IMG/VR virus record: IMGVR_UViG_3300035438_001155
Span: 1 to 16,912 of that record
Length of the DNA stretch: 16,912 nt
Direction: 5' to 3' (one strand)
Source of the DNA: a virus
A model generated the notes under the pieces. The model did no database searches. It worked only from the letters and a program-made list of their open reading frames with translations, and was not told where the DNA came from. Shown here one piece after another: positions 2,044-2,162 of the stretch (positions are counted from its first letter, which is position 1; each line of letters starts with the position of its first letter). The translations under genes were made by a program, and so were the position numbers.

Positions 2044-2119
2044 GCGGGTAAAGTGTTTACAGATACATGAGAGTCTTCCAAATTCTAGTAGACCGGCGCG
2101 CTACCGGCTACCCGCTCCA
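2044..2119 (+). ncRNA. tRNA-like RNA: 73-nt cloverleaf with anticodon TCC (Gly) and encoded CCA, but non-canonical D loop (no GG) and T loop (CGCGCTA, no TTC)
   Basis: Acceptor gcgggta (2044-2050) pairs 7/7 with tacccgc (2109-2115). T2116, CCA 2117-2119. D stem gtgt/acat, loop ttacagat. Anticodon stem agagt/attct, loop c-t-TCC-a-a. Variable agtag. T stem accgg/ccggc with one A-C mismatch. Sits exactly between a promoter and a terminator. Confidence 0.55.
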
Positions 2120-2126
2120 ATTTACT

Positions 2127-2162
2127 GAGGGTTAGGTTTAACACCTAACCCTCCTCTATTTT
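2127..2162 (+). terminator. intrinsic terminator for the tRNA-like transcript; overlaps the stop codon of the minus-strand GIY-YIG gene
   Basis: Perfect 11-bp stem gagggttaggt (2127-2137) with acctaaccctc (2143-2153), 5-nt loop, then ctctattttc. Confidence 0.6.

Follow-up and report, generated by a model that had tools for sequence, protein, structure and literature searches.

A phage tRNA-Gly(UCC) gene with a putative A18:G55 elbow that standard tRNA finders miss

This study concerns a small transfer RNA (tRNA) gene in a viral DNA of 16,912 nucleotides (nt), IMG/VR record IMGVR_UViG_3300035438_001155, positions 1 to 16,912. The whole of this stretch is called the window below, and the gene lies at 2044-2119 on the plus strand. 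We propose that its product is a genuine, selected phage tRNA-Gly(UCC), most likely decoding GGA and GGG, and we consider this reading probable. We also propose that its elbow, where the D loop and the T loop meet, is rewired rather than lost, as judged from related sequences: the 18:55 contact appears to have been exchanged as a compensated pair, from G:U to A:G. The initial annotation of this DNA had described a 73-nt cloverleaf (2044-2116) with seven of seven acceptor pairs, a TCC anticodon, a discriminator and a CCA, and all of these are seen in the sequence. It had also suggested that the RNA may be a mimic, such as a decoy, a primer or a regulatory RNA, rather than a decoding tRNA. We do not adopt this view, as the identity elements, U33, A37 and CCA are present and the surrounding tRNA cluster is syntenic with that of a metagenome contig, L110 (contigs and loci are given by L numbers where they must be told apart).

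The gene and its phage family

A sensitive blastn search with positions 1990-2165 against 50,697 phage records matched 2044-2120 only, at 81.8-84.4% identity. The matches were in 37 records, from T4-like Aeromonas phages, and the best had 84% identity (E = 4e-15). Several of these records annotate the matching locus as tRNA-Gly(UCC) within large tRNA clusters; in Aeromonas phages 44RR2.8t, 31, AP1, CC2 and others the annotation was made by tRNAscan-SE. The rest of the window showed no similarity to those Aeromonas phage genomes, and a megablast search with window positions 1-6000 against cultured phages returned a match to part of a tRNA-Arg only. The Aeromonas and window genes agree in their acceptor stem and in their D arm, in which A8:U14 and U21 are found. 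Both also have a bulged T stem, U73, a CCA within the gene and the anticodon UCC, and compensatory changes distinguish their anticodon stems. Their loops differ. The Aeromonas copies have G18-G19, U55 and the T loops TTCGATA or ATCGTTA, whereas in the window copy residue 18 is A and the T loop reads CGCGCUA.

The two also differ in how they are detected. ARAGORN calls an Aeromonas copy, to which Rfam gives 34.1 bits, whereas the window copy is missed by both. ARAGORN left 2044-2119 uncalled even with its thresholds set at 85% of the default values. The Rfam tRNA model (RF00005; gathering threshold 29 bits) gave no match to the cloverleaf, either at threshold or at E<=10. When the T loop was changed in silico to TTCGATA and nothing else was altered, ARAGORN called a tRNA-Gly(tcc). 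The single-sequence fold of the cloverleaf is unremarkable (z = -1.0). Thus, the case for a tRNA rests on comparison with relatives.

The tRNA-Gly family is defined here by the D arm GGUGUUUAYRGAUAC, of the Aeromonas phage 44RR2.8t type. Its members were collected by pattern scans of viral contigs, metagenomes and genomes, followed by extraction of the matches. The 39 distinct members that we aligned are all on viral or metagenomic contigs, and when 185,579 genomes of bacteria and archaea were scanned for the 5' half of the family, only two chance matches came up, neither of them a tRNA. From these sequences the family looks phage-only. In the alignment, 12-13 pairs of the cloverleaf are changed on both sides and 95-98% of cells are paired; none of 500 shuffles reached the observed pair values. 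A covariance model built from the alignment scores the window copy at 92.7 bits (E = 3e-22), with the window copy itself among the training sequences. The same model found no second copy in the window. A minus-strand cloverleaf with anticodon GGA was considered and rejected, as it is the plus strand that has the CCA and the discriminator, together with the Gly identity elements and every model match.

When it is set against a general tRNA, the window copy has the 7/4/5/5-base-pair cloverleaf with covariation, a canonical 7-nt anticodon loop (CUUCCAA) with U33 and a purine, A37, at position 37, and a 3' CCA. U8:A14 is absent, and from the elbow set of G18, G19, U54, U55 and C56 only G19 and C56 are present. 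The A8 that had been noted as an oddity is real, but it is matched by U14, and this swap is invariant in the family (39/39 members). An A49:C65 mismatch had been described as well, and here we read the T stem differently. Column 48:65 pairs in all 39 members, one exchange of G-C for C-G included, whereas column 49:65 pairs in 0 of 29 and the extra base is missing from 10 members. Thus, the T stem is better described by a G49-C65 pair, after which A2092 bulges out as a single nucleotide; the variable loop then has 4 nt, and the mismatch was dropped. Since A8/U14 and the apparent A49:C65 are shared with the Aeromonas copy, they are family traits and not signs of decay.

The A18:G55 elbow in tRNA-Gly and in other tRNAs

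According to the initial annotation, both partners of the elbow contacts had been lost. The window copy does show changes at G18 (to A, 2061), U54 (to C, 2097), U55 (to G, 2098) and A58 (to C, 2101), but G19 (2062) and C56 (2099) are kept as a pair and 18:55 is exchanged. Among the 39 family members, positions 18 and 55 are G/U in 25 and A/G in 14, and mixed combinations do not occur; Fisher's exact test gives about 7e-11 for this association when relatedness is ignored. G19 is invariant and C56 is found in 38 of the 39. The pattern does not result from ascertainment. Three scans were made with both loops free, and a scan that required A18 left the T loop free; every tRNA recovered by the latter carried G55.

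The exchange seems to have happened repeatedly. A neighbour-joining tree made from the 70 columns besides 18/55 is poorly resolved, which sequences this short would lead one to expect, and parsimony on it gives about five joint switches. Some members with different elbows are otherwise almost the same: L160 (A/G) and L023 (G/U) are distinguished elsewhere by one compensated acceptor pair (two positions) only, and L110 (A/G) and L036 (G/U) show differences at three positions. The same switch is also found in L102 and L143, which belong to a second tRNA-Gly lineage with a normal U8.

The earlier view that the D-loop and T-loop changes are coordinated, and not decay, is borne out by these data. 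A18 and G55 occur together in 14 of 14 cases in the family and in 28 of 28 across other isotypes, and the loops of near relatives are identical. Canonical loops in relatives had been taken in advance as the mark of a recently degraded tRNA-Gly. The distant Aeromonas homologues do have canonical loops, but the D and T loops of the near relatives (L110/L111 and L175) are identical to those of the window copy. Because the near relatives are non-canonical too, recent degradation fails as an account of this gene.

In cultured phages we found no A18:G55 tRNA and saw the G18/U55 form only; the loops are canonical in the weak matches, from Bacillus phage MrDarsey and Streptomyces phage Blueeyedbeauty, which were set aside. 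Full-text literature searches, which included a review of non-canonical tRNAs, gave no account of natural A18/G55 covariation, although such an absence is no proof of novelty. Phage tRNA-Gly is already known as a kind, and relatives of the gene with canonical loops have been annotated. The recurrence of a compensated A18:G55 elbow, and the failure of standard tools to find the tRNAs that have it, seem not to have been described.

The exchange extends to other tRNAs. ARAGORN called 739 distinct tRNAs over all fetched loci, 28 of them with G55, and every one of these 28 has AG in place of GG in the D loop. Their isotypes are Ala, Arg, Asn, Asp, Cys, Glu, Gly, His, Ile, Leu, Met, Phe, Thr, Trp and Tyr. 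The 203-kb viral contig L174 (IMGVR_UViG_3300050821_001527) has the A18:G55 elbow in 13 of its 15 ARAGORN-called tRNAs. Such tRNAs are found beyond Gly in L173, L168, L169, L171 and L160 as well, with 1-3 on each contig other than L174. The family model recovers further A18:G55 tRNAs of other isotypes that ARAGORN leaves uncalled, and the 14 members of the Gly family with this elbow are all passed over by ARAGORN and, at its threshold, by Rfam. As the elbow is found in tRNAs for at least 15 amino acids, it looks like a general, phage-wide tRNA dialect rather than a specialisation of tRNA-Gly.

Two other departures from the usual elbow were observed. In one, GA replaces GG in the D loop where UUU or UUA replaces UUC in the T loop, so that G19:C56 becomes A19:U56 (L110 18-94, 7356-7431 and 8272-8345, and other loci). 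In the other, eleven tRNAs have C55 (UCCGA) with a normal GG.

Known T-loop structures offer a rationale for the A:G combination. In the tRNA elbow, residue 18 intercalates between T-loop residues 57 and 58 and bonds to 55, while residue 19 pairs with 56; the flat face is used by RNase P, the L1 stalk and L5 (PMC4810234). T-loops outside tRNA, such as those of the flavin mononucleotide (FMN) and cobalamin riboswitches, follow the consensus YGNRA (UGNRA 89%, CGNRA 11%), and in these an adenosine is almost always donated, which bonds to the G of position 2 at its sugar edge. UUCRA, the form found in tRNA, uses a different intercalator and is a separate dialect (bioRxiv 10.1101/2022.12.26.521914).

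The phage elbow resembles the YGNRA T-loops of FMN and cobalamin riboswitches and introns: G55 would correspond to the G at position 2 and A18 to the adenosine of the partner loop, with a pyrimidine, C54, at position 1 and a purine, G57, at position 4. L102 and L174 have exact UGCGA T loops. The window copy reads CGCGC and differs from the consensus in having C, not A, at position 5. The setting is also different, in that the loop is part of a tRNA elbow and its position 3 (C56) remains paired with G19. If the geometric likeness suggested by these sequences is right, phage tRNAs have moved from the UUCRA dialect to the riboswitch-type YGNRA dialect. The combination C54:C58 is found in the window copy, L110/L111 and L175 only; other relatives have U:A, A:U, G:G, G:U or U:U.

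Transcription unit, strains and genomic setting

The coordinates of the gene, its parts and its surroundings are collected in Table 1. The TTGACA-N17-TATAGT promoter and the 11-base-pair GC-rich terminator hairpin of the initial annotation are both present. The promoter matches 11 of 12 consensus positions and would place the start of transcription at about 2034-2036. In the relatives L110 and L111 and in strain contig L179 its position is conserved, with the sequence TTGACA-N17-TATAAA. The window has six sites with at least 11/12 of the sigma-70 consensus where 0.37 are expected, and three of the six lie directly 5' of tRNA genes on the same strand. The hairpin has a folding energy of -18.3 kcal/mol (z = -4.2) and is followed by CTCTATTTTC; the U tract on its 3' side, CUCUAUUUUC, is interrupted. 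Its 3' arm contains the stop codon (2145-2147) of the convergent GIY-YIG gene; an overlap of the two had been pointed out. By its sequence, this arrangement qualifies as a unit with a sigma-70 promoter and an intrinsic terminator, and its activity is predicted. An Rfam search of 1950-2250 at E<=10 gave a 'cyano_het_sRNA' match of 20 bits, which is the terminator hairpin on the minus strand and was rejected; the rest was noise.

Table 1. Positions of the tRNA-Gly gene, its structural parts and associated features in the window
Feature	Position	Strand	Remarks
Predicted sigma-70-type promoter	1999..2027	+	-35 TTGACA (1999-2004), 17-nt spacer, -10 TATAGT (2022-2027)
tRNA-Gly(UCC), non-canonical elbow, encoded CCA	2044..2119	+	76 nt; homology, covariance model, stem covariation, Gly identity elements
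Acceptor stem	2044-2050 : 2109-2115	+	7/7 pairs
A8	2051	+	
D stem	2053-2056 : 2065-2068	+	
D loop	2057-2064	+	8 nt, UUACAGAU
A18 and G19 in D loop	2061..2062	+	A18 instead of near-universal G18; G19 kept
Anticodon stem	2070-2074 : 2082-2086	+	
Anticodon TCC	2077-2079	+	
Variable loop	2087-2090	+	AGUA, 4 nt
T stem	G2091 and 2093-2096 : 2104-2108	+	A2092 bulged
T loop	2097..2103	+	CGCGCUA, 7 nt: C54, G55, C56, G57, C58, U59, A60
Discriminator U73	2116	+	
Encoded CCA	2117-2119	+	
Intrinsic-terminator-like hairpin and U-rich tract	2127..2163	+	11-base-pair GC-rich hairpin at 2127-2153; tract CUCUAUUUUC
Convergent GIY-YIG homing endonuclease gene	2145..2987	-	280 amino acids; Pfam GIY-YIG, SegE_GIY-YIG, NUMOD3; PHROG 314, E = 2e-47
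Swappable cassette	2123-3219		terminator, GIY-YIG gene, next promoter, tRNA-Arg(UCU)
Upstream cluster members	347..571	+	interrupted tRNA-Leu 347-481, tRNA-Gln(UUG) 497-571; promoter 268-296
Downstream cluster member	3066..3194	+	consensus promoter 3066-3093, tRNA-Arg(UCU) 3117-3194
Near-perfect sigma-70 promoters (at least 11/12), six	268-296, 1999-2027, 3066-3093, 5284-5312, 11742-11771	+	
	12644-12617	-	sixth of these promoters

The closest relatives of the region are the metagenome contigs L110 and L111, with flanks that are about 74-80% identical at the nucleotide level. The order Leu(CAA), Gln(UUG), Leu(UAA), Gly, Arg(UCU) is common to the window region, L110 and L111. Between L110/L111 and the window, the tRNA-Gly genes differ at 27:43 (C-G versus A-U), 28:42 (G-U versus G-C) and 30:40 (G-C versus G-U), and pairing is kept. 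Four contigs from other samples represent the same phage; three of them cover the gene, and all three have an identical tRNA-Gly.

In two of these contigs, L179 (7947-9151) and L181 (7187-8391), window positions 2123-3219 are replaced as a single block by an HNH-endonuclease cassette. This exchange begins 3 nt past the CCA of the tRNA-Gly, and the replacing cassette has its own, unrelated 14-base-pair hairpin at the position of the terminator. The comparison indicates that the tRNA-Gly gene is conserved beside a recombination hot spot, and that two unrelated sequences maintain a hairpin between this tRNA gene and its convergent endonuclease neighbour. Homing endonucleases split the tRNA cluster into separate transcription units, and this accounts for the stand-alone look of the promoter, tRNA and terminator cassette. 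Homologues of the GIY-YIG gene are found in at least 10 other phage tRNA arrays that carry the tRNA-Gly family. Their spread may explain why a similar tRNA-Gly sequence is found in otherwise unrelated phages. The 16.9-kb window has three homing-endonuclease genes: HNH at 599-1273 (-), GIY-YIG at 2145-2987 (-) and HNH at 9965-10537 (-).

Brok-Volchanskaya and co-workers reportedly described, in 2008, a T4 tRNA cluster with the GIY-YIG homing endonuclease SegB. The window is similar in having a GIY-YIG gene inside a phage tRNA cluster with Gly(UCC), Gln(UUG), Arg(UCU) and Leu, and in its cassette-like strain variation; it differs in that its endonuclease is only distantly related. The tRNAs of the window cluster (Gln-UUG, Arg-UCU, Leu and Gly-UCC) are a subset of the classic T4 set. 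The T4 tRNA-Gly has a canonical core and loops.

Other tRNA genes of the cluster have unusual features of their own. The tRNA-Leu at 347-481 (+) is a class-II homologue (Rfam 44.8 bits) with a structured insertion of about 51 nt in the anticodon loop, beside C34-A35. Two hairpins make up the insertion, with an AGGC/GCCU helix closing them, and the fold of the complete RNA has z = -3.3. The syntenic tRNA-Leu(CAA) genes of L110 and strain contig L182 are without it, and an exact-match scan of viral contigs for the insertion found none. It is too short for a group I intron, and it may represent an intron of another kind, mobile DNA or an inactivation of the gene. At the tRNA-Arg place in L179, behind a consensus promoter, is a sub-threshold tRNA-like gene (7925-8011, -; Rfam 26.3 bits) with a UCU anticodon; its usual D arm is missing, and a D-arm-like hairpin (loop AAUUGGAGGCG) is found in the variable region. 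In the tRNA-Leu(CAA) of L182 (1451-1533, -), the 5' part resembles L110 and the 3' part is identical to the window, and the acceptor stem has an A5:C68 mismatch and two G:U pairs. This suggests a chimeric gene that arose by recombination within the tRNA gene. Structured RNAs were also seen in the same phage tRNA arrays, at L169 2703-3165 (-), L175 13022-13351 (-), L168 2859-3265 (+) and L143 4849-5168 (+): a GOLLD RNA (212 bits) that encloses a tRNA, a permuted transfer-messenger RNA (tmRNA) and standard tmRNAs.

Several protein genes of the window may be mentioned. A 200-amino-acid protein (6512-7114, +) consists of the catalytic N-terminal domain of the tRNA lysidine(34) synthetase TilS only (TIGR02432, 122.5 bits against a cutoff of 93.6; Pfam ATP_bind_3), and the usual C-terminal tRNA-binding domains are missing. 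A homologue that is 44% identical is found in L049, beside another tRNA-Gly locus. An 856-amino-acid protein (7074-9644, +) has the shoulder and repeat domains of the major vault protein (Pfam E = 4e-19). Within the phage collection it has relatives (37% identity) solely among huge phages, all uncultured and 462-735 kb in size (LR756500, LR756501 and LR756503), and for this reason the window may come from a large phage. The gene at 3873-5276 (+) encodes a saccharopine-dehydrogenase-like protein (Pfam E = 1e-27) and is possibly an auxiliary metabolic gene. An open reading frame (ORF) of 155 amino acids at 12184-12651 (-) has a weak match to the peptidyl-tRNA hydrolase Pth2 (E = 5e-4), far below the cutoff.

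Function of the tRNA and meaning of the exchange

We propose a model that addresses how the tRNA is made, how it is charged and how its elbow is built. Host RNA polymerase would start at the sigma-70-type promoter and stop at the hairpin. The transcript would be about 120 nt long, about 9 nt of it leader. After cleavage by RNase P and trimming of the 3' end, a 76-nt tRNA with its encoded CCA would be released, and host GlyRS would charge it by way of U73, G1-C72, C2-G71, G3-C70, C35 and C36. In the alternative elbow, the outer G19:C56 pair is kept and, as the covariation shows, G18:Psi55 is exchanged for A18:G55. By analogy with the YGNRA T-loops of riboswitches, A18 may intercalate between G57 and C58 and hydrogen-bond to G55. 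The core is inverted at 8:14 as well (A8:U14). Given the known specificities of TrmA, TruB, TrmH and ThiI, such a tRNA should be unable to carry m5U54, Psi55 and Gm18, owing to the elbow changes, or s4U8, owing to A8; nor would it present a UUC sequence in its T loop.

Our reading of the RNA as a decoding tRNA-Gly is based on the identity set, the canonical anticodon loop and the lack of another tRNA-Gly in the window. The bacterial Gly identity set, as determined by experiment, comprises U73, G1-C72, C2-G71, G3-C70, C35, C36 and the (G10-Y25):G45 triple (PMC9976931). All of these elements are present in the window copy, and they are invariant or nearly so in the family. ARAGORN, Rfam and the family model found no other tRNA-Gly in the window, and no other tRNA-Gly(UCC) was found in the examined parts of L110, L006 and L143. 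GGA makes up 24% of the Gly codons in the window ORFs, which is circumstantial support for decoding. Several points weigh against this reading. The general tRNA detectors, ARAGORN and Rfam, reject the sequence, and its single-sequence fold does not stand out. The T-stem bulge could weaken binding of EF-Tu. C54:C58 cannot form the usual reverse-Hoogsteen pair and departs from position 5 of YGNRA. Arguments from codon supply are weak. Finally, a canonical tRNA-Gly(UCC) adjoins the A18:G55 copy in L173, and L174 has a second tRNA-Gly(UCC), likewise with A18:G55; this duplication leaves room for a specialised role.

Such a role would make the RNA a non-decoding tRNA-Gly or a mimic: a glycine donor for a non-ribosomal transferase, a toxin decoy, a primer or a regulator. 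Besides the duplications in L173 and L174, the absence of U54, U55 and G18, the strong promoter of its own and a bulged T stem that might reduce EF-Tu affinity all fit this explanation. The missing residues are reminiscent of the staphylococcal non-proteinogenic tRNA-Gly, which is without G18, G19, U55 and C56 and serves as glycine donor for the Fem transferases in cell wall synthesis (PMC4574755). Weak binding to EF-Tu is a further mark of that class. Both RNAs are tRNA-Gly(UCC) with odd D and T loops in which G18 and U55 are missing. However, the window copy keeps G19 and C56, which rules out membership in the staphylococcal class, and its 18:55 change is compensated and found in many isotypes. 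The A18:G55 elbow in tRNAs of at least 15 amino acids also speaks against a special task for tRNA-Gly, as does the fact that the second Gly(UCC) of L174 carries the same elbow. The canonical-looped family members are the only tRNA-Gly annotated in the Aeromonas phage tRNA clusters examined, the anticodon loop (U33, UCC and A37) and the identity set are invariant in the family, and no Fem-like transferase was seen among the window ORFs scanned. We therefore regard a specialised role as unlikely.

Two further explanations were considered. If the gene were a recently decayed tRNA-Gly pseudogene with drifted loops, this would explain both its rejection by ARAGORN and Rfam and the canonical GG and TTCGATA loops of the Aeromonas phage homologues. 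It would leave unexplained why the diverged L110/L111 and L175 have identical odd loops beside compensatory stem changes, why A18 and G55 stay associated without exception through about five switches, and why the CCA, discriminator, promoter and terminator are intact. In addition, no difference in the gene is seen among four samples, even though the DNA 3 nt past its CCA is replaced. Thus, we consider decay very improbable. The modest z value of the minimum-free-energy fold would suit a chance cloverleaf between two genes, yet the homology to annotated tRNA-Gly, the score with the family model, the strong stem covariation and the syntenic position in a tRNA cluster effectively rule chance out.

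The decoding tRNA-Gly(UCC) thus remains our preferred reading, and within it the cause of the elbow switch may be considered separately. Tentatively, we suggest that the A18:G55 elbow with a non-U54 residue is a form of counter-defence that removes the U54-U55 (UUC) motif needed by nucleases that cut the T loop, although we hold this to be doubtful. A CRISPR-associated Schlafen (Cash) nuclease described in 2026 cuts tRNAs mainly in the T loop at UUC, and single U54 or U55 mutations abolish cleavage by CbCash; whether phage tRNAs are Cash targets is an open question according to its authors (PMC13462974). According to the work of Azam et al. (2024, PMC11555353) as cited there, phage tRNAs evade tRNA-targeting defence nucleases by anticodon-loop substitutions. 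The present case would be similar, in that a phage tRNA loop departs from the host consensus where a defence nuclease has a requirement (U54 and U55 for CbCash). It would differ in that the known cases, as cited, involve the anticodon loop, whereas here the T loop is changed together with a compensating change in the D loop. Under counter-defence, the change of G18 to A would keep the elbow folded, and a working tRNA-Gly would be retained while host tRNAs are destroyed. A link to tRNA-targeting nucleases is therefore possible, but as resistance and not as a decoy. That almost all of the tRNA set in L174 has been converted fits such a discrimination strategy. The tRNA-Gln and tRNA-Arg of the window phage are canonical, which weakens the counter-defence reading for the window genome. 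Neutral, compensated drift is another possible cause of the switch.

These findings have several consequences for phage tRNAs. Because standard finders miss A18:G55 tRNAs, phage tRNA repertoires are undercounted. The contact G18:Psi55, which has been held to be near-universal, appears to have been exchanged repeatedly in nature for A18:G55 with the G19:C56 face kept. In the A18:G55 tRNAs, a double-mutant cycle is already at hand for studies of tRNA folding and of how RNase P, the ribosome and modification enzymes recognise tRNAs. As tRNAs that would fold without U54, U55 and G18, they could be modification-independent or nuclease-resistant scaffolds. If our proposals are true, A18:G55 tRNAs would be independent of host TrmA, TruB and TrmH as well as invisible to standard tRNA finders, and in some phages the whole tRNA set would be protected. 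The A18:G55 sequences make escape of phage tRNAs from a UUC-cutting nuclease directly testable.

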